Part shown: one piece after another, positions 2,020 through 41,541 of the stretch
How positions within the stretch are numbered: the first letter of the stretch is position 1
Layout of the letters: every line of letters begins with the position of its first letter
Virus genome (UHGV): UHGV-1376088
Direction: 5' to 3' (one strand)
DNA from: a virus
Length of the DNA stretch: 64,000 nt
The notes under the pieces: model-generated
Seen by the model: only the letters and a program-made list of their open reading frames with translations
What the model was told of the DNA's origin: nothing
The model's database searches: none
Made by a program: the position numbers and the translations under genes

Positions 2020-2676
2020 ATGACTACATTCTTTATATATGAATTTAATAATAAATTTGAAATGTATCAAATGGGTCTTTCTAAATGGATTGATATTGTG
2101 AAGACCTCAACTAAGTACAAGTTCGTTTATTTGCTAGGTGCCGCTCTTTTGTGTTTGGCTATCTTTGCGCCTTGTTATATAGATATTGTCCCGGAATACG
2201 TTAAAGGCATAATTATACTTATTGAGCTTTTAGGTGCAATATTTGTTATTCCAACAATTTTGTCTGATGACAATATTATTGTGGATAATAGAGATTCAGA
2301 ACCTCAAAGAATAATAGAGTCTAAAACCCTTTATTTCTTAAAATATTGTGGACGTGTTACTGATGCTATGTCCTTGTTCGATATTTATTATGTTCAATGG
2401 GAAGATGGCGCCGGTATTATTATTGACACCAGCTATTATCTTATTAATGATTATAAGACCCTTAAGCCCATGAACATTGCCAAAGAGAAGAGAGATGTAA
2501 CACTAGTCGTAAGCGGCAATAAAGTCAGAGAAGAATATCCATTTAATATTGTGAATTCAGAACGAATTGTAGAAATCGTAAACGACTTAGGCATCATAGA
2601 TAAAATATTTGCAAGCTCTATAACAAAAGAAAAGATTGGTAGAAAATTACTTGAAAATATCATGAAGGGATATTGA
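2020..2676 (+). CDS. hypothetical membrane protein
   Basis: 218 aa with two predicted TM helices near the N-terminus. No motif recognised. Confidence 0.3.
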   Translation: MTTFFIYEFNNKFEMYQMGLSKWIDIVKTSTKYKFVYLLGAALLCLAIFAPCYIDIVPEYVKGIIILIELLGAIFVIPTILSDDNIIVDNRDSEPQRIIESKTLYFLKYCGRVTDAMSLFDIYYVQWEDGAGIIIDTSYYLINDYKTLKPMNIAKEKRDVTLVVSGNKVREEYPFNIVNSERIVEIVNDLGIIDKIFASSITKEKIGRKLLENIMKGY

Positions 2677-2677
2677 T

Positions 2678-3577
2678 ATGGACTTTATGAAGCTGCATAA
2701 ATATAATCCTAAGAAAGACTATTCGAGATGGTATTTACAGGAAAAAGTTGATGGAGTGTTCGCAGCCATTGATGTTAATACTGGTATTGCTTATAGTCGA
2801 ACTGGCAAACCTTTATTTATTCCTGAGGGCACAACATTAAGGTGCACCATGGATTATATTCGTATGTATTACTCAGTAAACAAGCAGCCGGCGAATACTT
2901 TTATTATTGCTGAAATTTTTTCTTTTGGTTTAACACTTGAACAGATGTCAGGATTGTTAAATCCGAATCGCAAAGAACCATGGGATAAAACTATCCTGAC
3001 AGATTGGTCCGTTTATGCACATGACTTTGTAACACTGGTTGATGGTGTTGATAATACACCTTATAGTGAACGCTACAACAAGATTATTCGTATGCCTCAG
3101 AATTGTGTGGACTTGCGCCGTGTGTATAACATTGTATTGGAAAATGCTAAAGAGGCAGCTGCTGCAAAAATCGAAGAAGAATTTAACGATCTTATGTTGT
3201 TAAATTGTGAAGGCATTGTACTTAAAGATCCAAATGGCATCTATCGTATGGGTAAACGCGTCAATACGCAGGTTAAACGTGTTCGTGAGCATCTTGAAGA
3301 TGTAAGAATCGAACAGGTTAAATACGGTACTGGTAAACGTAATGGACAAATAGGCTCAATGTACTGTAGGTCTATTGATAATCCTGAAATAGCTTTTTGG
3401 GCAGACTTCGGATTAAATTGGGATGACGCCAAAAGAATCGAATTGACCTCTAAATTCGAATTAGACAATAAGTCTCTTATTGGTACAATATGGACGGTTA
3501 AGGGATTGCAACAAAGTAGCACTGGTAAATCTATACGTTTGCCAAAATTAATGTATATGCGATTTGACAAGGAGTAG
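2678..3577 (+). CDS. ATP-dependent DNA ligase (small, Chlorella-virus/T7-like)
   Basis: Nucleotidyltransferase motif I K-V-D-G (QEKVDGVF) is present. Motif IV E-G-I-V-L-K-D and a basic motif V follow. The 299-aa size fits minimal ATP ligases. Confidence 0.6.
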   Translation: MDFMKLHKYNPKKDYSRWYLQEKVDGVFAAIDVNTGIAYSRTGKPLFIPEGTTLRCTMDYIRMYYSVNKQPANTFIIAEIFSFGLTLEQMSGLLNPNRKEPWDKTILTDWSVYAHDFVTLVDGVDNTPYSERYNKIIRMPQNCVDLRRVYNIVLENAKEAAAAKIEEEFNDLMLLNCEGIVLKDPNGIYRMGKRVNTQVKRVREHLEDVRIEQVKYGTGKRNGQIGSMYCRSIDNPEIAFWADFGLNWDDAKRIELTSKFELDNKSLIGTIWTVKGLQQSSTGKSIRLPKLMYMRFDKE

Positions 3578-3580
3578 ATT

Positions 3581-4201
3581 ATGGCGAATTTGTTTGTAGA
3601 TGCTAGTGGTAAAAAGCCGAAGTGCTACTGGGAAGGTTATTCCTGTCCAAAAGGTAAATGGTACAGCATTAAAACCGGCCCTGAACCCTTTTTTATATTC
3701 TTATTATTGTTTAAGCTTATAATTGGACTTTTGATATGGGCGCTTTTAGACGTAAGCTTATATATAATTGGCACTATTGTAATTATTGGTATGGCTGTCT
3801 CTTGTTTTACGTATCACCATAGGGAAAGTTATACAATTTTACAAAAGTCCAAAAGCCTTGATGATATCCTGATTGATGATTCTCCAATTTATATTACTGT
3901 TTCTAAGAGCCTAAGGGCTATTTGTTTTATTATACCAGAAAAGAAATATATGTTTTTCAGGACTATTGGATATGGCGATGACAGGATTAATGTCACCTCT
4001 TCTATGTGGTATGTATATAAAAATAAAGAACCATATGAGATCCGTAGTAGGTATTTTGAAGATCCTATTAAAGATCTAAAATCAAAATTGAACTATAATT
4101 GCAATTTGCATTCTGTTATTAATTTGAATAGTTCTCAATTAAGTAGAGATAAAGTTTTGAAATGTTTGCAAGATCTCTCTTTTTTTATTTTTAATAAATA
4201 G
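3581..4201 (+). CDS. hypothetical membrane protein
   Basis: 206 aa with two TM helices. No motif recognised. Confidence 0.3.
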   Translation: MANLFVDASGKKPKCYWEGYSCPKGKWYSIKTGPEPFFIFLLLFKLIIGLLIWALLDVSLYIIGTIVIIGMAVSCFTYHHRESYTILQKSKSLDDILIDDSPIYITVSKSLRAICFIIPEKKYMFFRTIGYGDDRINVTSSMWYVYKNKEPYEIRSRYFEDPIKDLKSKLNYNCNLHSVINLNSSQLSRDKVLKCLQDLSFFIFNK

Positions 4202-4209
4202 GAGCTAAT

Positions 4210-4800
4210 ATGGCTTATACTGACTTTTTCCATATTAAGAAAGATAAAGATGGTGTTGAGCTTCGTTTTCTTAAGACGTGTATAGATACCGTTGATTGCG
4301 TTATAAACAATAAAACTGCTTCAAGGGGCGATGAACCTGGTCACTATTATGATGATAGACATGATGAAGCTCCTACAATAGATAAGCATTTTAATATAGA
4401 GGATGGCGACGTTGTATATGTCTCTAAAGAGTATAGAAGAGATAAGTATCTGTCTGATCAAAAGCTGCTGGATAATGTATCGATCTTAATTATTATCGTT
4501 TATAAGCCTGGCAAAAGCGCGGAAGTGATTTACTCTTGCAACTATTCACATTCCTTTATATTTAAAAAGGTTGTGCCTGAAAAGTTTTGCCTTTATAAAA
4601 ACAGAGAAATGATTCCATTGGATGAGTCTATGTTTAAAGCCGATATTCCTCATATTGAAAATGCTAAACTGTATATGGACCTCTTGTATGGCCGTGTTTA
4701 TAGTGAAGGAATTTCCAGATATATGTGTGAATCGGTTTTAGAAAGAGCTGAAAAAATATATGATAAGCTTTTTCTGGAAATAAACGATAGCTGCATTTAA
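4210..4800 (+). CDS. hypothetical protein
   Basis: 196 aa ORF with RBS ggagc. No motif recognised. Confidence 0.3.
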   Translation: MAYTDFFHIKKDKDGVELRFLKTCIDTVDCVINNKTASRGDEPGHYYDDRHDEAPTIDKHFNIEDGDVVYVSKEYRRDKYLSDQKLLDNVSILIIIVYKPGKSAEVIYSCNYSHSFIFKKVVPEKFCLYKNREMIPLDESMFKADIPHIENAKLYMDLLYGRVYSEGISRYMCESVLERAEKIYDKLFLEINDSCI

Positions 4801-4828
4801 ATTGTTGTTATAATAAAAAGGAAAAGGA

Positions 4829-5050
4829 ATGACTCCAACGATTGTACTCCTGCTCAGTATTCCGATCTTTATATTGGCCTGCTTTATTATCCGTGTCAAA
4901 GATATTGATTTGCCAGGCCATGATAGAATAGATAATCTTCTCATTTTAATATTCCTATATGGAGTGTGTTTGATTTGGCCAATAAGTCTACCAGTAGTTA
5001 TTATTGGATTAGTTGGCTTAGTAATTACAGGGAAGCATAAAGATTTATGA
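4829..5050 (+). CDS. small membrane protein
   Basis: 73 aa with two TM helices. Confidence 0.3.
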   Translation: MTPTIVLLLSIPIFILACFIIRVKDIDLPGHDRIDNLLILIFLYGVCLIWPISLPVVIIGLVGLVITGKHKDL

Positions 5051-5203
5051 ATATCTATCGCGTATTAGCATTTCTTGCATATATCCTTGGAATTGGTTTT
5101 ACTGGAATCTGGGTATTTAATCATGCTCCATATCCATTTTTAGGGATTCTAATTGCATTTGCAATTCCTGTACTTGTCATTAAATTTATTAAGGATATAC
5201 CCA

Positions 5204-5989
5204 ATGATTAAAAAGCTTTTTATTGCATTGTTTGCTTTGGTATCAATCGCAGCATGCTCTCGAGTTGAACCAAATCAGGCAGGCGTCTTGATGGAAAATT
5301 ATGGACGCAATGGTAAATCAGACTTCACCATTGTTAGTGGCGTAATTTGGACGATTGCTCCCGGCACTGAATTGTATCAAGTTCCATTGTGGGAACAGCG
5401 TGGCAAGTTTGAAGAGGCCGTAACGCTGAAGGCATCAGACAATACGGATTTTGCCGCGACTCCTGTGTATACTTTCCGTGTTATGAAAGACCGCGCAGTC
5501 GATGTTGTGTTTGACAACAAACAGCTTGGCTATGGTTCTGAATTTATCCAGTCTTTACAGGACAATATTCTTGAGCCTAAAATCCTCGACCTCATGAAAG
5601 AGGAAAGCCGCAAATATACGACTGAAGAGCTAATGGCAAAAGGCGGAAGCTTGGCATTTGAACAAAAGGTCCAAGATGTTGTTAAATCAGAATTCAAAAA
5701 TCGTGGTTTAGAATTAATGACTTTTAGTTCACAATTGACATTCTCTAAATCTGTCACTGGGCGTATTGATAAACGAAATGAAGTTAATCAAAATATCGCT
5801 GTAATTGATCAACAGATTGAAGAGCAGAAGAAACGTTTGGAACTGGCACGTCTTGAAGCCGAAACTAATAAGCTGAAATCAGAAGGTATTACTGAGAAAC
5901 TTCTGCAACAACAGTTTATTGAAAAATGGGATGGTAAAACGCCTTTATACGGCACAACACCTGTTACATTATTTAAACAAACAAATTGA
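5204..5989 (+). CDS. SPFH/band-7 (prohibitin-like) domain lipoprotein
   Basis: Signal peptide ends in lipobox L-V-S-I-A-A-C. The segment A-G-V-L-M-E-N-Y-G-R-N through T-P-V-Y-T-F-R-V resembles an SPFH domain. A C-terminal coiled coil follows. Start chosen at the internal Met with an aagga RBS. Confidence 0.4.
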   Translation: MIKKLFIALFALVSIAACSRVEPNQAGVLMENYGRNGKSDFTIVSGVIWTIAPGTELYQVPLWEQRGKFEEAVTLKASDNTDFAATPVYTFRVMKDRAVDVVFDNKQLGYGSEFIQSLQDNILEPKILDLMKEESRKYTTEELMAKGGSLAFEQKVQDVVKSEFKNRGLELMTFSSQLTFSKSVTGRIDKRNEVNQNIAVIDQQIEEQKKRLELARLEAETNKLKSEGITEKLLQQQFIEKWDGKTPLYGTTPVTLFKQTN

Positions 5990-18790: not shown

Positions 18791-20167
18791 ATGAGTTTGA
18801 GCGTTGCTGATCTGATGGGCGAAATGGATTTTCGTTTGCCGAAGGTTGTACAAAGCAAAGAAGAAGCAGAAGATGGCGATTCTATTGTAGCTGAAGACGG
18901 TATCTATAAATTGGTCCGCGCCATTATTGGTGACTTCTGGATTAAGGCAGAAAGCTTTAAGACTAAGATGGTTGGAATGCCGCAGCTGTCAGAAAGCTTT
19001 ACACAGTCATCTGAAATTCCTAAAATCCCAGGTGAATTGTTTTACGGTATTATCAGATTCTACCGTAAAATTTACGAAACAAATAAAAATGAAGTGATGG
19101 CCCAGATTTGGTGGGATAAAGAAGAGCGCAAATTCCTGGTTGAAGTTCCAGAACAAGAAGTTGCAGGTGCTTCTATTACTTATCAAAGAACCGGCGGATG
19201 GTATGATGATCCTAATAAGGTCCTTGTATTGACATCTCACTCACATCATACAATGGGTGCATTCTATTCATCCGTAGACAATTCAGATGAAAAAGGCAAA
19301 CATGGAATTTACTCATTTGTATTTGGCAATTTAGTAAATAAGCCTGACGGAACATTTACATATAAAACCGTTCAGCGCGTATGCTGTGCAGACGCATTAA
19401 TTCCATTACAGCTGGAAGATATTTTTGATTTTACCGAAGGTTGCGAATTTCTTTTCGAAATCCCAGAAGAGGATTACGCAAAAGTTAAAGCTAAAGTTTA
19501 TAACTATGGAGCTTATGCTAATTATGGCAAATCTAAATCAAAGGGGTTTCCTTACACGGGCGGCCAATCAACTCCCGCAAACGTCTCAAAAATCGAAGAC
19601 AACTATGAATTTTACTCAGGATATCTGGGTTATTCTTACGGGAGTTATGACAGCGCTTGGGATTCTGTGGATTATCCTAACAATGCTTCAACTGTAGGAT
19701 CAAGCGCTATAGAAAAACGATGGCAAACTGGTGCTGAAGCCACGGTTGACAGAGTTAAATATGGATATATTTCCTCTATACTGAGAGGAATGTCCAAGCC
19801 TGGCGATGAGCTCCTGTATAACTATTTTGAATTCAAAGAAATTGAATCTATTGTTTCTGATTTTGTAAATGCTGTAAGCCTGCCGGAAACACATCCGTAT
19901 TATATGTTCGCAGAGCTTCTGAACTCATTTATGTCTAATCTTTTGGAAGGTCTTTCAGATGTACAATATGGTGATCGTGAAGGGCTTAGCAAAATTGAAG
20001 ATCCATCAAAAGCATTTGCCGTTGTGATTGCATCTGCTATTAGTGGTGTGGAGGATTCTTTTAATAGTATGGCTTCTCCTAATAGCGCTGTTGACCTTAT
20101 GAAAGACCATAATTTGAGCTTTTTGTATCTACCAGAACGAATTGCCGCTTATTTAAAAGATTTTTAA
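18791..20167 (+). CDS. JAB/MPN+ (JAMM) metalloprotease domain protein
   Basis: An upstream Glu (E-V-P-E-Q-E) then S-H-S-H-H-T-M-G-A-F-Y-S-S-V-D gives an exact H-x-H-x7-S-x2-D JAMM motif. A long Y/G/S-rich low-complexity C-terminal region follows. Confidence 0.6.
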   Translation: MSLSVADLMGEMDFRLPKVVQSKEEAEDGDSIVAEDGIYKLVRAIIGDFWIKAESFKTKMVGMPQLSESFTQSSEIPKIPGELFYGIIRFYRKIYETNKNEVMAQIWWDKEERKFLVEVPEQEVAGASITYQRTGGWYDDPNKVLVLTSHSHHTMGAFYSSVDNSDEKGKHGIYSFVFGNLVNKPDGTFTYKTVQRVCCADALIPLQLEDIFDFTEGCEFLFEIPEEDYAKVKAKVYNYGAYANYGKSKSKGFPYTGGQSTPANVSKIEDNYEFYSGYLGYSYGSYDSAWDSVDYPNNASTVGSSAIEKRWQTGAEATVDRVKYGYISSILRGMSKPGDELLYNYFEFKEIESIVSDFVNAVSLPETHPYYMFAELLNSFMSNLLEGLSDVQYGDREGLSKIEDPSKAFAVVIASAISGVEDSFNSMASPNSAVDLMKDHNLSFLYLPERIAAYLKDF

Positions 20168-20179
20168 AGGAAATACCTT

Positions 20180-21082
20180 ATGCAAAATGCTGTACTTGGC
20201 AGAAAGAAAATTGAATTTATTTCAACTCAAGATGAAATCAATAAGCATCAGAAAGAAGTTGAAGATTACGAAATGACAAAATTAATGCAACGTCTTTCGT
20301 CCGCCGAAACTAATGCTCCTAAAAAGCCGCTTGACCGCATTGTTGTTGTTGGTTGTGGCGGAACTGGCTCTTGGTTAATTCCAAAACTTGCAAAAACCAT
20401 CAATGATATGAAGCGCAAGAAATTACTTGCTAATCATTTTTCTTTGATTCTTGTTGATGGCGACCAAATTGAACCTAAAAATTTGATTCGGCAGAACTTT
20501 GTTGAATCAGATATTGGTAAAAATAAAGCGGAAATCATGGCTCTTCGATATGGGGCAACGCTTAAAGATATTAATGTCCAATATATCGACAAGTATTTGA
20601 CCGATAAGTCAAGTTTTGACACTAATCACTTTTCCCATATCAATGTTTTGCAGAATATGATTTACGATGACAATTATTGTGTCATATTCAATCTTGTTGA
20701 TAACCAAAATGCAAGACGCGCGGTTCACTCATTACAGTTCTGCGGCTGGATTGTTGATATTGGTAATGAACTGGCACATGGCCAATTGTTTGCAACTCCA
20801 TATGGTTTGACTAGTGGCTTTATTGGATCATTAAGCTTCTTCACTATGTCTCCGGAAACGTTGACGGCAGATGAAGAAGTGAAAATTTATTCTTGCGCCG
20901 AAGCCGATGCGGATACAGAGCTGGAAGAACAGTTCTTGGTTGCCAACGATACAGCTGCTTTGGTTGGACATAACTGGCTATGCTCTTTAATGAGCGGTCC
21001 AGATGTAGTTCCTGCAAGAATTAATTTTACATGCTTGCCAATTCCGACCGTAGAAACAGTGTTGAAAACAATCCGGTTTTAA
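20180..21082 (+). CDS. E1-like ThiF/MoeB-family adenylyltransferase
   Basis: Rossmann I-V-V-V-G-C-G-G-T-G-S-W. D-G-D-Q-I-E-P-K-N-L-I-R-Q corresponds to D-x-D-x-V-x-x-S-N-L-x-R-Q. E-S-D-I-G-K-N-K-A-E and N-L-V-D-N-Q-N-A-R correspond to D-C-T-D-N-x-x-x-R. Confidence 0.7.
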   Translation: MQNAVLGRKKIEFISTQDEINKHQKEVEDYEMTKLMQRLSSAETNAPKKPLDRIVVVGCGGTGSWLIPKLAKTINDMKRKKLLANHFSLILVDGDQIEPKNLIRQNFVESDIGKNKAEIMALRYGATLKDINVQYIDKYLTDKSSFDTNHFSHINVLQNMIYDDNYCVIFNLVDNQNARRAVHSLQFCGWIVDIGNELAHGQLFATPYGLTSGFIGSLSFFTMSPETLTADEEVKIYSCAEADADTELEEQFLVANDTAALVGHNWLCSLMSGPDVVPARINFTCLPIPTVETVLKTIRF

Positions 21083-26626: not shown

Positions 26627-27277
26627 GTGTCTAAAATAGAAATGAACGTTTCGCCCGACGTCAAAAGGGCAATGACTAACTTTAAGACTGCAATGAATAA
26701 GAAGTATGGAGAAGGTAGTGATATTTTTGCCAACGGGCAGTATCAGAATTTTGAGTCTATCTCTTCTGGTTCTGCCATTCTTGATGGTCTTCTTGGTAAT
26801 GGAGGATGGGTCAGGGGCCGTGTTCACGAAATCTTTGGCGCGTCCGGTTCTGGCAAATCCACTATTGTATCTTTGACTTGTGCAAATGCACGTCGACAAT
26901 ATCCGGATAAATACATTTTATATGTGGACGCCGAACAAGCGCAAAACCATGCCTATATGAAAAAATTGGGGCTTGATTGCGAGAACGATGAAGGTGTCGT
27001 ATTCCTCCAGATGCAGGAAGCTGAGAATGTCTTTGAAGTTATTGACGGTGCGGTTGCTACCGGCGCCTTTAGTTTGGTTGTCGTTGATAGTGTTCCAGCG
27101 TTAATGACTAAACGCGAATTGAATGGCGATTACGACAAAGAAACGATGGCCGAGAAAGCTCGCTTCCTGTCTAAAGCTTTGCCCAAGCTTTTGGAATCTT
27201 TGAAGAAAGCTAATACCACTATGATTTTTGTGAATCAGGTAAGGGACAAGATGGATATGTGGGGCGGAGTTACTACC
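26627..27277 (+). CDS. recA: RecA/UvsX-like recombinase, exon 1
   Basis: I-L-D-G-L-L-G-N-G-G-W-V-R-G-R-V-H-E-I-F-G-A-S-G-S-G-K-S-T (Walker A) and T-M-I-F-V-N-Q-V-R-D-K-M match RecA. Homology stops at T-T-P-G(N) and resumes in the next ORF. Confidence 0.7.
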
Positions 27278-27577
27278 CCTGGTAATAGTATCTATGGTTA
27301 CTATTTAGTAACTGTAGATTTCTGCCGTTCATAGTGGAAACATTATGAATCATGATAGCGGAATTAAGCGAGAAAATCCTCCCTCTTAGATAGGACAACT
27401 CGAACCGAAGGCTGGCCCTAACGGCCCAGTCAGGGGCAACGCATAGAAGCTGAAACTAATAATAGAATATAATGCTTCCACGAGGCCGCTACACCTAAGT
27501 CCTTTGGATATGGTGAAAAAGTATGCTGAACTGCATTGTAATGATGCAGAGGCAGAGATAAAAAGCTCTGCGATAAC
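27278..27577 (+). mobile_element. ORF-less group-I-like intron in recA (boundaries about 10 nt uncertain)
   Basis: About 300 nt interrupt RecA between T-T-P-G-N and A-I-P-F-Y-C-S-S-R-V. The sequence shares the core seen in the dnaE introns (the cacctaagt...atggtgaaaa...gataacaa motifs). It is GC-richer than flanking DNA. Confidence 0.55.
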
Positions 27578-28018
27578 AAAATGGGAAAAGCCATTCCGTT
27601 TTATTGCTCAAGTCGTGTTAAAGTAAATTCGACCCCGTCAATGCGAATTAAAAATTCAGCCGGCGATGGATTCATTGGTCAAACCGTGGACTTTACTATA
27701 ATTAAGAATAAAGTCGGTAGTCCTTTTGGTGTTGGTGAATCTAATCTTTATTTTGGTGTTGGTTTTAATAAAGTTGAAGAACTTATTGAAGCTGCTATTG
27801 CCAAAGATGTTTTTGAAAAGGGCGGAGCCTGGTACACATTACCTTATTGTACTGAAGATGGCGAAGTTTTAAAATTTCAAGGTAAAACTGGCCTTAAATC
27901 ATATTATGAAGCCAATCCTTCCGAATTAGATAAACTTCAAGAACTTGTTAACAATGCGGGACGTGATGATGAAATTCAAGTAGTTGGGGCGCCCGGTACA
28001 GTTGAGGATGGATATTAA
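27578..28018 (+). CDS. recA: RecA/UvsX-like recombinase, exon 2
   Basis: G-K-A-I-P-F-Y-C-S-S-R-V-K-V corresponds to RecA G-N-A-L-K-F-Y-A-S-V-R-L. V-G-S-P-F-G matches the RecA A-A-P-F-K region. Confidence 0.65.
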   Translation, partial: KMGKAIPFYCSSRVKVNSTPSMRIKNSAGDGFIGQTVDFTIIKNKVGSPFGVGESNLYFGVGFNKVEELIEAAIAKDVFEKGGAWYTLPYCTEDGEVLKFQGKTGLKSYYEANPSELDKLQELVNNAGRDDEIQVVGAPGTVEDGY

Positions 28019-28588: not shown

Positions 28589-30346
28589 ATGGACTTTGTA
28601 TCCACTCCTGAAAATCCAAATGGTGATATTAAACCCGAAGATATCGGGAAGTATACGAATTTACATGCTCATAGCATTTATAGTCCTTTAGATGGCTTCG
28701 GTAAGCTTGAAGAATATTGCGAACGGGTAAAAGCTCTAGGGATGAAAGGCTTATGCCTTTCTGAACATGGCAATATGATTGGTCATCATGAACAGGCTAA
28801 GATTTGTGCTAAGCATGGCATTAAGCCTATTTTTGCTAATGAAGGGTATATGACTCTTCATGCCGGATCTATTAAAGAAAAGATAGAGGGTTATAAGGCG
28901 AACTATCATATTTTGCTTATTGCTATTAATGAGCAGGGTTATAGAAACCTTATGAAAGCTACATCTATTGCTTGGACACGTTATAAATATTATAAGCCAC
29001 GCTTTGATTTAGCACTTCTTGAAGAATGCAACGAGGGCCTGATTTGTACATCTGCTTGTCTTGGCGGACCAATTAATCAGTTATATTTAGATGGCCGACC
29101 TGAAGAGGCTGAACAGGTTGCGCTAAAGCTGAAAGAGATTTTCGGCGATAGATTTTATTTGGAAAAAACTTATACCGGCTTAGAAGAGCAAGATATTGCT
29201 AATAAGAATTTGGTTGAGATTTCTAAAAAGCATAATATACCTATGATTATTACTTGTGATAGTCATTATGTTTATCCTTGGCAATCTGATAGTCATGCAA
29301 AATTGGTTATGGTTAATACTGGCGGTCAAATCAATAAAGCGATTAAGGCTGCCGGCTTAACTGACTCTAGCAAAGAAGATGCTGACGTAGATAGCAACTC
29401 TATGTTCTATCAGCCTAGTCAGTATTATGTTAAACCACATCATGTATTGGTTGAAGAATATTATTCTAATCCTGAAGATGAAGAAGCCTTTGCCAATACT
29501 AATAAAATTGCAGATATGTGCAATGTGGTTTTACCTAAAAATGAAGACATCATTTTTCCTTCACCATATTCTGATCCCGATTCTGTTTTAAGAGGACGGG
29601 CAATGCAATGGTATTCGGAATACTCTAAAAAACTTTCTGATGAACAAAAAGCATTGTATTTAGATAGGCTGGAAGAAGAGCTGGATATGTATTCTAAAAT
29701 GGGCTTTAGTTCTTATCCTTTGGTGCTGCAAGAGATTCTTGATGAAGCCAAAGCGAAAGGCATTATGATTGGCCCTGGCCGAGGATGCCTATTTGAGGGA
29801 ACTAAAGTTCTAATTAATAGATCCGGATCCATATATTATTGTCCGATTGAATTTGTCAAAGTCGGCGATATGGTATGGACACATAATAGCAGATGGAAGT
29901 CTGTATATCATACCACTAAATATGTTGTAGACTATAGAGATATGGTTACTCTCGAGACAGAATATGGTATGATGCACCTCACAGAAGACCATAAAGTAAA
30001 AACAAAAAACCATGGATTTATCCCTGCTATTGAATTAGACGGACAAATACACACACTGGATAGAGGAACTTTATCCGATGAAATTCTGTCTAAAGTTGAA
30101 GATTATAAAACCGATTCAATCGAAAATTTTGAACTTTCTAGCTTCTATAATGAGGATGAACCTGTAAGGGTTTATGATCTTATGGTTGATGAAGATTGTT
30201 CTTTTAGAACTAATATCTGTATGGTGCACAATAGTGCCGCGGGGTCTTTACTCTCTTATGCATTAGGTATTACTGCTATTGACCCTATACCATATGGACT
30301 AATGTTCAGTCGTTATCTTAACGCCGGACGCGCAAAACTACCGGTT
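28589..30346 (+). CDS. dnaE: DNA polymerase III alpha (DnaE-type) exon 1, with PHP domain; contains mini-intein
   Basis: L-H-A-H-S-I-Y-S-P-L-D-G-F-G-K is the PHP N-terminus. G-P-G-R-G then intein then S-A-A-G-S-L-L-S-Y-A-L-G-I-T-A-I-D-P. F-S-R-Y-L-N-A-G-R ends the homology, which resumes at 37624. Confidence 0.75.
29786..30232 (+). mobile_element. mini-intein (149 aa) in DnaE at the GRG/SAAGS site
   Basis: Begins with Cys (C-L-F-E-G-T-K-V-L) and ends V-H-N, followed by Ser. The flanking exteins reconstitute the conserved G-R-G-S-A-A-G-S motif. Confidence 0.7.
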
Positions 30347-30403
30347 ATTGAAATTAAAGGCTACCCATTAAAAGAGTGGCTAACAACAGAAAGAAAATAA
30401 AAA

Positions 30404-36621: not shown

Positions 36622-37114
36622 ATATGTCATAGACTGTTCTAGTCCTAGGCGAAAAACGCGAAATAGAATTAGAAGGTTTGAAAAATCTATTCTTATGCTG
36701 GAAGGATTGAGGTATTTTGCATTTCCTAAAGATTTGGCCAATATAGAAAAAAGAATTCAACAATATAAAGATAAGATCCGAGAAAAGGAACTTAGATATG
36801 GCGATTTTTTACACCTTTGCGGCATTAAAAAAGATATTAGCGAAACCCAAAGGAAGATACACTTTAATAAAATCCAATTTAGAGAGCTTAATGAAAAAAT
36901 TAACTCTATAAACAGCTATATCGAAAGTGCTATAAATCCCTTTGATTTTGATTATATCGAATTGAGAATTATCAAATCGAAAAAGGAAATGCAACGCCTT
37001 AAGGATTTGCGAATTGCTCTTGGAAAAGAACAATATGGTCTAAAGAAAAGGCTCAAAGAGGGTTATCGTTCTTTAGCAAATCTCCATAATGATACAGGTA
37101 AAGAAAATGGCTGA
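36614..37114 (+). CDS. hypothetical basic coiled-coil protein (intron cargo)
   Basis: 166 aa, K/R-rich. Confidence 0.3.
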   Translation: MDKYVIDCSSPRRKTRNRIRRFEKSILMLEGLRYFAFPKDLANIEKRIQQYKDKIREKELRYGDFLHLCGIKKDISETQRKIHFNKIQFRELNEKINSINSYIESAINPFDFDYIELRIIKSKKEMQRLKDLRIALGKEQYGLKKRLKEGYRSLANLHNDTGKENG

Positions 37115-37370
37115 ATATAAAACATTAAGAGAATTAGTTTTATCCTTTTCTGACACCGATTGGTTTAAAGAACATAGAGCAAATATTATGTTTGAATTAA
37201 ACCATTGTGAACTTCATCATATTGATTCCTATTATTTGAATTTATACAATGCAGGCGTTAAAGGTATAGAGGAAAATGAAGCTAATTCTTCTATTGCATA
37301 TTTACTCGGAATTGTAACAACCCCGCCAAATGGTAAAGTTCATACTGTTGGCGGAGGTTTCCCGGATTAA
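37089..37370 (+). CDS. hypothetical protein (intron cargo)
   Basis: 93 aa. Confidence 0.25.
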   Translation: MIQVKKMAEYKTLRELVLSFSDTDWFKEHRANIMFELNHCELHHIDSYYLNLYNAGVKGIEENEANSSIAYLLGIVTTPPNGKVHTVGGGFPD

Positions 37371-37623
37371 AGAAATAGTCCCTTTGTTAAGAAATTGACA
37401 ACAGAAAACTCTGTGAAAACGGTGGAACTCTCTAGAAGACAATGCCGTGCGAAAGTTTGCGAAAGCGAAAGACGTGTAACGACTATTATGTAGGGCCAAG
37501 TGGTTCGAAGCGCAGAGCACCTAAATCCTTATGGACATGGTGATGAGATAGTCTGGTCTCTATGGCGACATAGAGCTGGTTTTGTACCGGGTATAGATTA
37601 ACGACCTATACTGAACATAAACG

Positions 37624-38456
37624 ATTGATTCCGATGTAGAAAAAGAAAGACGCGCTGAAGTATTTGAAATGCTTAAAGATAAGTATGGAGAAGGATTTGC
37701 GCATCTTGGTACACTAACCTATACTGGCGGCAAAAAGGCATTTAAAGATGCTGCACGTATTCATGGTATGGGTTTTGATAAAGCAAATAAGATATCGTCC
37801 ATGATGCCTGAAATTGGATGTCCTCCACTTGACGTATTACTCAAAGAAGACGATGAAATCAAGGCATTGTATGACTCAGACCCCGAAGTAAAAGAGGTCT
37901 GGGACGATGCAATTAAGCTCAGTGACTGTTTATCCAGTCAAGGGGTTCATGCATGTGGAGTTGCATTGTCTGATCGTCCACTATGGGAAGATGTTCCACT
38001 TTGGGATAGCAAAGGCGTTCCTGTTATTCAGTGGGAAGGTAATAAAATTGAAGAAACGTCAAATGTTGTAAAATTAGATGTGCTTGGGTTAAAAACGCTT
38101 ACAGTTCTTAACTTTGCAAGAGAGCTAATTAGAAAGCGTCATGGTATTGACATTGACTGGTATAATTTACCAATGGACAATGAAGCGGCATATAAAGTTC
38201 TTTGGAACGAAAGAAACTATGGCATATTTCAATTTGAAGAAGCTGGTATGTCTGGATTCGTTAATGCTTGTAAGCCTAAAACTATTCATGATATTGCAGT
38301 AATTGTATCAACTTACAGGCCTGGGCCGTTAAACATTCCCGGATTGGTACAACGAATTATAGGAAAGATTTCTGGAGAACTTCCTCCAACGAAATTTAGA
38401 TTTCCTAAGTATGACCACATCTTTAGTAGTGCACATAACGAATTGATTTTTCAGGA
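37624..38456 (+). CDS. dnaE: DnaE exon 2
   Basis: I-D-S-D-V (catalytic Asp pair) E-K-E-R-R-A-E-V-F-E-M-L-K-D-K-Y-G-E-G-F-A-H-L-G-T-L-T-Y aligns with E. coli [33 protein letters not shown]. It ends at I-F-Q-E (E. coli I-L-Y-Q-E-Q). Confidence 0.65.
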
Positions 38457-39534
38457 AGGTTCGAATGGCCTTTGTCAAAGGTAACAAATTACAACAGAAA
38501 TATAGCGATGAGCTTATAAATAAAATAATCGAAGAATATCTTGGTGGCCTTACTGCCGTTGAGCTTGGCAAGAAATATAGTATTAAACCTGGAACCATAA
38601 ATTACCATCTAAGAAAAAGAGGGTTAAGCAGAGGGTCAGGCAAGCCTAGCTCGATAGCAAATAAGGATTACTTTGAAACTATAGATACAGAAGAAAAAGC
38701 ATATTTCCTCGGCTTTCTTATGGCTGATGGATGCATAAGCTCTTCTCATGTAAACTATCATATAAAATTAGTGCTTCAAGAAAAAGATGCAGACGTGATA
38801 AAAGCATTCTTATTAGCTATTGGAAGCAGTAATTCTATTACGAAAGTTATAAAGAATAACCATATTGGCTACTCTGTATCCTTAAGTTGCAAAAAGATGT
38901 TTTACGATTTAGTTAATCATGGGTTTTTGGAGCATAAATCTGGGAATGAAATTATTCCGAATACTATTCCAGATGAGCTTATTCGTCATTTTATTAGAGG
39001 TTATTTTGATGGCGACGGATGTGCATCCAAAGAAGGAAGAATAAGCATCGTAGGCGGAATAAAGATCCTTGAAGATATAGCCAAACACGCGATGATTGAC
39101 GATTATAGTATTTATGAGTTTAAAAATACTTCTGTTGTACGCGATTTGAGATACTCTAAATTAAGAAGCTCCAAATTGTTTTATAATTATCTTTACAAAG
39201 ATGCCAATATCTTTTTATATAGAAAGTGGATTAGACTTTTCAATGTCCACGGCCCTATATAAAAGAGGGACGTTTAAAGTGGAAACACTTTTTATTATGA
39301 CTGGCCAATATCGGTGGAGGGATTTTGCTTTTATCCTAATACCGAGATAACTCCGTATTTAAATGATGCGGAGCATCGTAGAGCATAGAATCTGAAACTC
39401 CAATGGAGAATATAATGATTCCACGAGTGGCCGGCACCTAAGTTGATTTTCAATATGGTGAAAATGTATGCCGAACTATATCGAGAGCAAAAGTAGATAT
39501 AGAGCCAAAGGATAAAAAGCCTTTGGGATAACAA
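38457..39534 (+). mobile_element. group-I-like intron containing a LAGLIDADG homing endonuclease ORF
   Basis: The intervening sequence sits between the exon 2 end and the exon 3 start. The 3' 270 nt (39263..39534) carry the shared intron core. Confidence 0.6.
38465..39262 (+). CDS. LAGLIDADG homing endonuclease (double motif)
   Basis: Two motifs, Y-F-L-G-F-L-M-A-D-G-C-I-S and F-I-R-G-Y-F-D-G-D-G-C-A-S. An N-terminal HTH-like segment is present. Confidence 0.75.
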   Translation: MAFVKGNKLQQKYSDELINKIIEEYLGGLTAVELGKKYSIKPGTINYHLRKRGLSRGSGKPSSIANKDYFETIDTEEKAYFLGFLMADGCISSSHVNYHIKLVLQEKDADVIKAFLLAIGSSNSITKVIKNNHIGYSVSLSCKKMFYDLVNHGFLEHKSGNEIIPNTIPDELIRHFIRGYFDGDGCASKEGRISIVGGIKILEDIAKHAMIDDYSIYEFKNTSVVRDLRYSKLRSSKLFYNYLYKDANIFLYRKWIRLFNVHGPI

Positions 39535-39612
39535 ATTGTCCTCCGTCTATCAAAAGAGATGTGCGGCTTCTCTGATATTAAAGCTGATGTTCTGAGAAAG
39601 GCTGTAGGTAAG
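39535..39612 (+). CDS. dnaE: DnaE exon 3 (micro-exon, about 26 aa)
   Basis: V-L-R-L-S-K-E-M-C-G-F-S-D-I-K-A-D-V-L-R-K-A-V-G-K aligns with E. coli [21 protein letters not shown]. Confidence 0.6.
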
Positions 39613-39852
39613 TTAATTGCCCCTTGTTTTAGTAATAAGACAATGTGCATCGAGCAAAATCGGTGAAGGCTGAGATGCTAATACCGAGGTAAGTTTGCAG
39701 GAACTGTAAACCACCGTAGAGCGTAGAGATTGAAAAGATATAATATCTCCAAGAGTGTTCGACATCCTAATGGGATGAAAATGTACGCCGAACTTATGCA
39801 AATATGAAGCATAAGAACTATCGGATAAAAAGCCGATAGGTTAACATAATTG
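39613..39852 (+). mobile_element. ORF-less group-I-like intron
   Basis: About 240 nt. Shares the aatcggtgaagg...aataccgaggtaagt...gtagagcgtag...atgtacgccgaact...ggataaaaagcc motifs with the other introns. Confidence 0.55.
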
Positions 39853-39984
39853 AAAAAAGATGCAGCCAAACTAGCATCACTCAGAGAAGACTTCATCAAT
39901 GGTGCAGTAGCCAATGGTGAAGATAAAAAAGAAGTAGCGCAATTCTGGGAAGAGCTCCTAGAGTTTGCGAGGTATGCATTTAAC
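39853..39984 (+). CDS. dnaE: DnaE exon 4 (about 44 aa)
   Basis: K-K-D-A-A-K-L-A-S-L-R-E-D-F-I-N-G-A-V-A-N-G-E-D-K-K-E-V-A-Q-F-W-E-E-L-L-E-F-A-R-Y-A-F-N aligns with E. coli K-K-P-E-E-M-A-K-Q-R-S-V-F-A-E-G-A-E-K-N-G-I through V-E-K-F-A-G-Y-G-F-N. The ORF-track TTG start is an artefact. Confidence 0.6.
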
Positions 39985-40263
39985 GCTTTGATTTATAAGA
40001 GAAAATCTGAGGCGTCTAGTATAGCAATATATTAGATTATCAGTGGGCAAAATCGGTGAAAGGATTTACCTTGTATTCCCAATACCGAGATAAGTTTAAG
40101 GTTAACATCTTAAACTATTGTAGAGCATAGGCGGTGAAACTCGTTAGAGAATATAATCCGCCCAAGAGTGTCCGCCTTCCCTATGGGAAGAAAATATATG
40201 CCGAACTATGGAGAGTGTAAAGTATCCATAGAACTAGAGGATAAAAAACCTCTAGGATAACAA
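39985..40263 (+). mobile_element. ORF-less group-I-like intron
   Basis: About 280 nt. Same core motifs, and the same ...ggataacaaTTG 3' end as the intron before exon 3. Confidence 0.55.
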
Positions 40264-41541
40264 TTGTCGCATGCGTACTCCTATGGTCATCTAACCTACT
40301 ATACTGCATGGCTTAAAGCCAATTATCCGGAAGAGTTTTATTGTTCTATTATTACTTGTGAAACTGATCCTCCAATGAAGAAGACTTATATGGAGGATGC
40401 TGTATCTAAGGGTATTAATATCTTGCCGCCGGATTTAAATGAATCTGTAGGTACTTTTGGTCTTAACCGTAATAATGATATCATTTACGGTTTGTCCGGC
40501 ATTCGTGGTATTGGTGATGGCGCCGTTAGCAAATTAATTGAACTTAGACCTTATAGTAGCTTTGGCGATTTTCTTCTTAGAACTTATCTTTTAACTACTA
40601 ATATTAATAAGAAGGTTTGTGATAGTTTAATTCTTTCCGGCGCGGTTGATTCTTTTGGATATAAACGAAGTGTTTTGATTCGCTCGTATTCGAAATTTAT
40701 TCTTGATTTTGACCCTAGAGGAACACTAAAAAAAGAATGCAGGGCAGCAAAAGGTTTAACGCCCGAAGCTGAAGAGAGAATTAAAGAGTTCTGCAAAATG
40801 GAACACAAATATTTTGTTGACCCATTGTTTAAAGAATTCACACTTCTTGAAATCTTAGAGGCAGAAAAAGAGCTTATTGGTGTGTATATCTCTGGAAACC
40901 CTATGGATGTTATAGCCAAAGATGTTAAAGAGATGCACCATGATTCTGTTTTTATTGAGAATCAAGTTGCCGAAACTGGCGTTTATCATGGTTCAACTAT
41001 ATGTCAGGTTTCTAAGGTTAGAGCTATCACAACTAAAACCGGTAAACCTATGGCTTTTATTGAGGCTAAAGATATAAATGGTAGAGATTATGGTTTTACG
41101 GCGTTTTCAAATGTCTATGAACATAATAAAGATCTATTTGTGGTAGGAAAATATTTACAATGTTTTATCACTGCCAAGCCTAGCTATAGGGGTACCGGTA
41201 TTGACTGTGTTATCAATTCTGTCTTAGATTTAACAGCCGATAATTCTGGATCGAATGAAGAGGCTGCATCAGTCTTTGAGGAAATTACCATCAATTTAAC
41301 TGGAATTCCTTCTCCGATTAAATTTAGAACTATCCTTAATAAAATTAGGGATAATAAGTCTGATGATGACAACAATACAAAAGTGTTTATAACCATGACT
41401 GATTTTGAACCAGAAGTTAGCCCTGGCGTCAAAATTAATAAAACAACTATACGGTTTGGTCCATTCTATATCAAGACTGCGGATATTGACGTTGTTAGAG
41501 ATTTTAATGGACTTAGAGATGTAACAATCTCTACAAGATAA
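40264..41541 (+). CDS. dnaE: DnaE exon 5 (C-terminal region)
   Basis: S-H-A-Y-S-Y-G-H-L-T-Y-Y-T-A-W-L-K-A-N-Y-P-E-E-F aligns with E. coli [24 protein letters not shown]. The G-I-N-I-L-P-P-D-L-N and G-L-S-G-I-R-G-I-G segments also match. Confidence 0.7.
   Translation: MSHAYSYGHLTYYTAWLKANYPEEFYCSIITCETDPPMKKTYMEDAVSKGINILPPDLNESVGTFGLNRNNDIIYGLSGIRGIGDGAVSKLIELRPYSSFGDFLLRTYLLTTNINKKVCDSLILSGAVDSFGYKRSVLIRSYSKFILDFDPRGTLKKECRAAKGLTPEAEERIKEFCKMEHKYFVDPLFKEFTLLEILEAEKELIGVYISGNPMDVIAKDVKEMHHDSVFIENQVAETGVYHGSTICQVSKVRAITTKTGKPMAFIEAKDINGRDYGFTAFSNVYEHNKDLFVVGKYLQCFITAKPSYRGTGIDCVINSVLDLTADNSGSNEEAASVFEEITINLTGIPSPIKFRTILNKIRDNKSDDDNNTKVFITMTDFEPEVSPGVKINKTTIRFGPFYIKTADIDVVRDFNGLRDVTISTR

Follow-up and report, generated by a model that had tools for sequence, protein, structure and literature searches.

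The stretch of DNA analysed here – 64,000 nucleotides of the virus genome UHGV-1376088, hereafter the window – carries a recA gene on the plus strand that is interrupted by exactly 300 nt. Alignment of the flanking peptides by tblastn places the inner ends of the two coding parts at 27283 and 27584, and thus the insert at 27284-27583 (+). The first part, exon 1 (26627-27283, +), starts at a GTG codon at 26627, comprises 219 codons and closes with ...gtt act acc cct ggt, so that its last base is T and its peptide reads ...M-D-M-W-G-G-V-T-T-P-G. The second, exon 2 (27584-28018, +), begins gga aaa gcc att ccg ttt tat (G-K-A-I-P-F-Y-C-S-S-R-V) and runs as far as its stop codon.

The gene lies within the order RuvC, a gene of unknown function, recA, a MazG-like gene and dnaE, an order kept in contigs of approximately 170-184 kb, at least one of which comes from a Human Microbiome Project sample. 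In the relatives (referred to, where they need to be told apart, by L numbers) a reverse-transcriptase gene (RVT_1) stands some 4-5 kb upstream of recA (in L014 and L015 at 4379-5932, and at the ends of L007, L009 and L012), adjoining ThiF-like and JAB-like genes. A blastn search of 50,697 phage records with the recA exons gave no match; the insert alone does find matches there.

The interrupted recA gene

When the two exons are joined they specify a protein of 363 amino acids that matches the Pfam RecA profile (PF00154) in a single stretch, residues 21-280 covering profile positions 8-261 of 262 with 185.4 bits; taken separately the exons score 148.1 and 24.5 bits. The joined protein matches E. 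coli RecA structures at E 1e-50 and aligns with E. coli RecA with no gap across the junction (...mwgg.vttpggkaipfy / mfgnpetttggnalkfy). Uninterrupted relatives show the same junction. A search of 5.8 billion proteins returned nine in which (T/I/V)TPGG(K/R)A(I/V)PFY is unbroken, six of them reading exactly TTPGGKAIPFY; identities among the uninterrupted relatives are 93, 91, 83 and 79%, plus one fragment at 99%. In six other relatives the protein is cut off at TPG|, in five of the six at TTPG|. The insertion point is therefore between two glycine codons, ...T-T-P-G|G-K-A..., at the end of DNA-binding loop L2.

The preliminary description had recognised a real break in RecA homology, although the span that it gave, 27278-27577, is shifted six nucleotides to the left. 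Homology does not stop at T-T-P-G-N (27277), as had been claimed: the N is the first codon of the insert, aat, and the exon ends ...T-T-P-G at 27283. Resumption at A-I-P-F-Y-C-S-S-R-V was the right region, but the match begins at G-K-A-I-P-F-Y, at 27584. As to the designation recA/uvsX-like, RecA is borne out by the profile and by the E. coli alignment, while nothing in the comparisons speaks specifically for T4 UvsX.

Past 27283 the exon 1 frame remains open for 16 codons unrelated to RecA and then meets a stop; in all, the insert holds nine stop codons in the exon frame and five and 11 in the other two. A reader of the annotation alone might conclude that the gene is truly split, with N- and C-terminal RecA fragments – one of 235 aa ending in 16 insert-encoded residues, the other starting from the ATG at 27581 – translated separately and perhaps associating, the spacer being retained. 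Gene callers do annotate two ORFs in all relatives that bear the insert, and the ATG at 27581-27583 is in frame with exon 2. That ATG, however, is not conserved (it is TTG in L012 and L013, and TCG at the L009 site), and no Shine-Dalgarno-like sequence is found upstream of 27581, whereas recA and the N-terminal dnaE gene do have AAGGA/AGGA. The break moreover falls within the conserved L2/TTPGG motif, and the spacer is a conserved, covarying ribozyme fold with an exon-pairing guide, as set out below. We consider separately translated fragments highly improbable. The reading that we prefer is that recA of this phage, which is large and uncultivated, is interrupted at 27284-27583 by what is very probably a functional group I intron, and that the exons are joined by splicing at a junction predicted to read ...CCCCTGGT|GGAAAAGCC.

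Fold and splice sites of the intervening sequence

The intron carries the terminal bases of its class: T (27283) precedes it, and its last base is G (omega-G, 27583). Near its 5′ end lies an internal guide sequence, UUUCU|GCCG (27319-27327, +), which was read from the sequence and is complementary to both exons. The GCCG part pairs with UGGU at the end of exon 1 to form P1, placing a U.G pair – T27283 with G27324 – at the splice site; the UUUCU part (27319-27323), directly 5′ of it, pairs with GGAAA of exon 2 to form P10. P1 is short, at 4 bp, and two of its four pairs are wobbles. Its loop (L1) holds a variable hairpin (27290-27319, +), paired by hand and occupying the position at which relatives carry an endonuclease ORF; the region differs among orthologues yet forms a hairpin by eye in each, and RNAalifold retained the inner stem only.

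Downstream of the guide the elements of a group I core follow in order on the plus strand. P2 (27328-27349) comprises 9 bp closed by a GAAA loop and shows compensatory changes in L005, L013 and L001. The 5′ strand of P3 (27356-27361) has its partner at 27486-27491, and four of its six pairs are changed on both sides. The P4-P5-P6/P6a domain (27369-27434) consists of P4 (27369-72/27399-402), P5 (27377-80/27392-95) and P6/P6a (27405-27434), P6a being fully compensated in L013. The 5′ strand of P7, GCAUA (27441-27445), pairs with UAUGC (27522-27526), making a pseudoknot with P3. Between P7 and P3′ lies an additional element, P7.1 with an inner hairpin (27446-27478), in which four of five outer pairs are compensated. 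P8 (27492-27515) contains the blocks cacctaagt and atggtg. The core ends with P9 and P9.1 (27531-27571; P9 at 27531-27549 and P9.1, with loop AUAAAAAG, at 27552-27571), after which comes the tail GAUAACAAAAUG.

Evidence that this structure is more than a drawing is of several kinds. In the window sequence itself every helix from P2 to P9.1 can be drawn by hand with standard pairs throughout. The minimum free energy is -88.8 kcal/mol (z = -4.75), lower than in any of 200 shuffles. RNAfold and RNAalifold each recover P2, P4, P5, P6a, P7.1, P8, P9 and P9.1. For covariation we aligned ten homologous cores, taken from recA, from dnaE and from three cultured phages. With the full structure, including the P3/P7 pseudoknot, paired cells amount to 92.0%; sliding the partners by one to three columns lowers the share to 33-41%. 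The former figure is conservative, since in L009 and L002 MAFFT placed P2 and the 5′ half wrongly and such cells were scored as unpaired. Changes on both sides are present at 36 of the 64 pairs. None of 500 shuffles of the ten homologues reaches any observed measure, a statistic that overstates independence because the sequences are related; the slid-partner control and the count of double changes are the more reliable guides.

The same evidence bears on whether the insert could be some other intervening element, such as an intein, a group II intron or a translational bypass region. Its length is a multiple of three, and one relative has an intein in the same gene (at DAEQA|C). Against an intein stand the nine in-frame stops; against all three stands the group I architecture supported by covariation. 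The insert is in addition of a length far below that of a group II intron, for which Rfam gave no match, and six times longer than the known bypass of T4 gene 60. Any such element we regard as next to inconceivable here. The relative in question, L013, carries in its recA region (2501-3631) both its intein, assigned by a precomputed Pfam Intein_splicing match, and a 299-nt intron at TTPG|G.

A group I intron of this architecture suggests a conventional course of splicing. The transcript would fold into the P1-P9.1 core, and GCCG of the guide would pair the last exon 1 bases, UGGU, so as to present the U.G wobble at the cleavage site. An external guanosine would then attack after U27283, UUUCU of the guide would align GGAAA of exon 2 through P10, and the terminal G27583 would be displaced. 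Ligation of the exons would yield an mRNA for the 363-aa RecA.

The hairpin between P7 and P3′ points to subgroup IA, and on the modelled fold the intron is an ORF-less member of the phage-type IA class. Introns of this class in phages (T4 td, nrdB and nrdD, and those of SPO1 and Twort) lie in conserved codons of genes for DNA metabolism. They share with the window lineage an extra P7.1/P7.2 and the placing of any ORF in a peripheral loop; in both, several introns may occupy one gene and presence varies among close relatives. The sequence lineage is nevertheless a different one: the usual P7 is GACUA/UAGUC, that of the window intron GCAUA/UAUGC.

The general Rfam model for group I introns, RF00028, aligns with the recA insert over its whole length (1-253) but at 12.4 bits (E=1.4), well below the gathering score of 50. 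Among members of the recA-intron lineage in seven related loci none reaches E <= 1. The same model finds a canonical intron in L015 with 106 bits and a td-like intron in the window with 67 bits. Given that the fold is backed by independent evidence, and that no relative in the lineage attains the threshold, we read the low score as a gap in the sensitivity of the model. A GEBRO match over the P8 hairpin (11.6 bits, E=0.54) was set aside as chance.

Occupancy of the recA site among relatives

Presence of the intron is polymorphic. The recA site is empty in L014, L015, L016 (99% amino acid identity), L020, L021 and L022; the intron-less site is ...ACTCCTGGAGGAAAAGCC.... Inserts of 295-302 nt occupy the site in L004, L005, L006, L013 and L018, and L012 and L017 have a 1419-nt insert with an ORF of 360 aa, seen in part in L007 and L008. 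Among the nine intron-bearing alleles (the window, L004-L007, L012, L013, L017 and L018) the last glycine codon of exon 1 is always GGT, as compared with GGA in four, GGC in one and GGT in one of the six intron-less alleles; T at -1 is accordingly found in nine of nine and one of six. The ligated sequence predicted for the window, GTTACTACCCCTGGT|GGAAAAGCCATTCCG, thus contains a GGT that is absent from five of the six intron-less DNA alleles, only L022 having it.

Identity of the intron core does not track identity of the exons. Compared with the window, the core is 99% identical in L004 (exon 1 88%, exon 2 98%), 97% in L006 (exons 71-77%), 95% in L005 (exons 80-84%), 88% in L012 (exons 56-68%) and 87% in L013 (exon 2 83%). 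The incongruence between the two rankings, of which L006 is an example, suggests lateral spread of the recA intron, with constraint on the ribozyme also contributing to the identity of the core. Spread was probably by homing.

Some relatives (L012, L017 and L007) carry an endonuclease ORF of 360 aa within the P1 loop, its stop codon overlapping the guide and P2. The predicted protein is Myb-like at its N-terminus, contains HTH repeats and shares a GDYWHCNP motif at its C-terminal end with a DUF559 protein. The intron of the window is without an ORF, and a search of the 64-kb window for homologues of these endonucleases found none; on both counts current mobility of this copy is doubtful. At the position of the ORF the window has its variable hairpin of 36 nt, as would be the case had the ORF been lost or had the ancestor never possessed one.

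Might the element then be a dead relic, and recA a pseudogene in this phage? Absence of a homing endonuclease gene, a P1 of only 4 bp and a very low Rfam score are what one would cite in favour. Yet all helices are intact, the core is 95-99% identical in three genomes and 87-88% identical in two more distant ones, the differences between orthologous introns are compensatory, and both exons keep open frames together with conserved RecA residues. Decay of intron and gene is on this evidence very unlikely, and a functional group I intron remains the reading that we favour. The exon junction, a covarying fold, complementarity between guide and exons, presence/absence polymorphism and homology to phage introns were all computed here; from these we infer splicing, the capacity to self-splice free of protein, and a history of homing.

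A related intron is present in recA of L009-L011 (about 3165-4392), 10 nt upstream of the site used in the window, at W-G-G-S-V|T-P-G-G (...GGA TCG GT|...GUCG|A ACT CCC GGA). It carries a DUF559/Vsr-like ORF of 324 aa. A search of PDB sequences with this ORF from L009 returned only a weak DUF559-like chain (E=0.29) and did not find I-Bth0305I, an endonuclease encoded within a known recA intron; we therefore make no claim of a close relationship between the two.

Introns of dnaE, of other phages and of known recA genes

The preliminary description placed the recA insert in one family with introns in dnaE. The C-terminal dnaE gene of the window (37089-41541) contains four introns within approximately 2.9 kb, each preceded by T and each ending in G, and residues 89-654 of the joined product can be aligned without a break to residues 459-1015 of Thermus aquaticus Pol III alpha. 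For comparison a covariance model was trained on the 3′ domain (from P7 onwards) of ten sequences, none of them a dnaE copy of the window. It scores the recA intron at 184.5 bits. In dnaE it recovers, at E 1e-30 to 1e-19, intron B (38462-39538, +; 1077 nt, with a LAGLIDADG ORF at 38465-39262; 113.1 bits), intron D (39988-40266, +; 279 nt, guide GGCG with exon ...GCU; 91.1 bits) and intron C (39610-39852, +; 243 nt, P7 GCGUA/UACGC; 75.1 bits). Intron A (37368-37623, +) scores 21.3 bits (E 3e-4) and belongs to a T4 td-like lineage, the one that RF00028 detects with 67 bits. Nothing else in the 64-kb window was found by the covariance model.

The proposed family thus holds for three of the four introns, those with 113, 91 and 75 bits in the covariance-model comparison that had been recommended, and, as far as the sequences can be aligned, for the 3′ domain (P7-P9.1). 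The short blocks on which it was first based are present as described – cacctaagt at 27492, atggtgaaaa at 27510 and gataacaa near 27572 – and the first two recur exactly in a dnaE insert, at 39435 and 39455. Taken singly such blocks are no commoner than chance (eight matches against 9.4 expected, one mismatch allowed). A profile of the recA-intron core finds two dnaE inserts by nhmmer (E=4.5e-17 and 6.5e-8), B and D aligning at model positions 121-264 only; their 5′ halves (P2-P6) differ in sequence from that of the recA intron and are of another sequence type. That the recA intron and dnaE introns B-D share one 3′ domain joined to seemingly unrelated 5′ domains may reflect assembly of the ribozymes by recombination between introns.

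A close relative of the recA intron over its full length occupies dnaE at K-L-D|V-L-G-L in L015 (~20013-20280) and L018 (13178-13412). In L015 its guide is AUCU|GGCG, of which GGCG matches exon ...GCU and AUCU pairs AGAU. The window has no intron at this dnaE site and L015 none in recA, indicating that the two sites are occupied independently.

Several features of dnaE deserve mention in their own right. The gene is present as two ORFs (28589-30400 and 37089-41541) separated by some 6.7 kb that holds unrelated genes, and a segment of the ...AY-LGI... type is found both where the first ORF ends and where the second starts. The same two-gene layout is seen in the intron-less L014 and is thus a property of the phage group rather than an effect of introns. 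The N-terminal ORF contains in addition an insertion of 149 aa (29786-30232; GPGRG|CLFEGTKV...ICMVHN|SAAGS) with the hallmarks of an intein – Cys first, His-Asn last and Ser following – that divides the Pfam DNA_pol3_alpha match in two. This insertion has no Pfam intein match at E<0.001.

The lineage extends well beyond the genomes related to the window. By blastn the same core was found in cultured phages too, between the parts of split genes for helicase, terminase and RNA polymerase, 50-80% of the core aligning at 68-77% identity. These copies mostly have the GCCG guide and follow a GGU glycine codon, and they share a 3′ tail comprising a hairpin with a AUAAAAAG loop and then GAUAACAAnnnG. 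Among the phages that carry them are Bacillus phage KLEB27-3 (helicase), Staphylococcus phage SpP (terminase), Aeromonas jumbo phage AhC3_1 (RNA polymerase), AR9/PBS1 and phiR1-37. They differ from the window intron in lying in other genes of other phage groups, are unannotated, and no match in the database was in recA. The claim that the family targets at least two genes therefore stands, and with related phages can be widened to helicase, terminase, RNA polymerase and SNF2 helicase.

Four members of the lineage are placed as follows. That of AhC3_1 (L003) lies in the metal-binding motif of RNA polymerase, GDFDG|DQ; those of KLEB27-3 (L001) and an IMG/VR contig (L019) interrupt the P-loops of helicases, at G|KS and G|KT; and that of SpP (L002) lies in the large terminase. 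Each follows GGU, two have ORFs in the P1 loop, none is annotated and none is found by RF00028.

GGU-glycine sites in catalytic or nucleotide-binding motifs recur across the lineage: TTPG|G in RecA, DFDG|D in RNA polymerase and G|K(T/S) in helicase P-loops. The GCCG guide is matched with ...CGGU in the RNA polymerase gene of the Aeromonas phage and with ...UGGU or ...AGGU in the two helicase genes. It may be that the lineage reaches new genes by change of the guide alone. The broader proposition – a widespread phage ribozyme lineage, undetected by Rfam, that retargets by guide change only and is modular in its 5′ and 3′ domains – is one we offer tentatively, as possible though on balance doubtful.

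Group I introns in recA are themselves established, in the Bacillus anthracis/B. cereus group and in the B. thuringiensis phage 0305phi8-36 (PMC2504315, PMC3239194, PMC3984707). The phage case, in a gene annotated as 'UvsX-like recombinase', has much in common with the window: the intron lies in the L2-coding segment, has U in front of its 5′ splice site and G as its last base, and is associated with Vsr/DUF559-like endonucleases, in the window lineage by way of its relatives. I-Bth0305I, encoded by the 0305phi8-36 intron, cleaves the L2-coding segment (PMC3239194). The differences are equally clear. The 0305phi8-36 intron is inserted at F-G-D|P-N-V-T-T-G-G, 18 nt upstream of the G|G junction of the window; it carries its own endonuclease ORF, which the window intron does not; its P7 strand has the canonical sequence AGAUAUAGUCC, where the window intron has GUAUGC; and it has no nhmmer match to the window intron core at E<=10 and is absent among the blastn matches. 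The window intron thus differs from that of 0305phi8-36 in lineage and in site.

The bacterial intron offers a parallel of another kind. It is small and still splices; the endonuclease gene is gone from most strains, one strain keeping the ORF. As in the window lineage, the exon bases that pair with the guide are conserved in intron-bearing alleles (PMC2504315). It differs in residing in a bacterial chromosome, and is reported to be similar to the 0305phi8-36 intron, which that of the window is not. In Acinetobacter phage ME3 (NC_041884 / KU935715, 93243-95141) a gene for a Vsr-like 'DNA mismatch endonuclease' lies directly upstream of a RecA-homologous region on the same strand, and this may be another intron-bearing recA.

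The element described here is of a kind already known, and does not change understanding of how group I introns work. What it confirms is that this uncultivated phage group is heavily colonised by self-splicing elements: within the 64-kb window recA has one intron and dnaE four, and there is probably an intein besides. Genes split by such introns are fragmented by gene callers, and a whole lineage of phage group I introns escapes the standard Rfam model, so that annotation pipelines will under-count them. Finally, the window adds a third intron insertion point within approximately 18 nt of the L2-coding segment of RecA; with at least three distinct intron sites, this reinforces the view that the segment is a hot spot for mobile elements.
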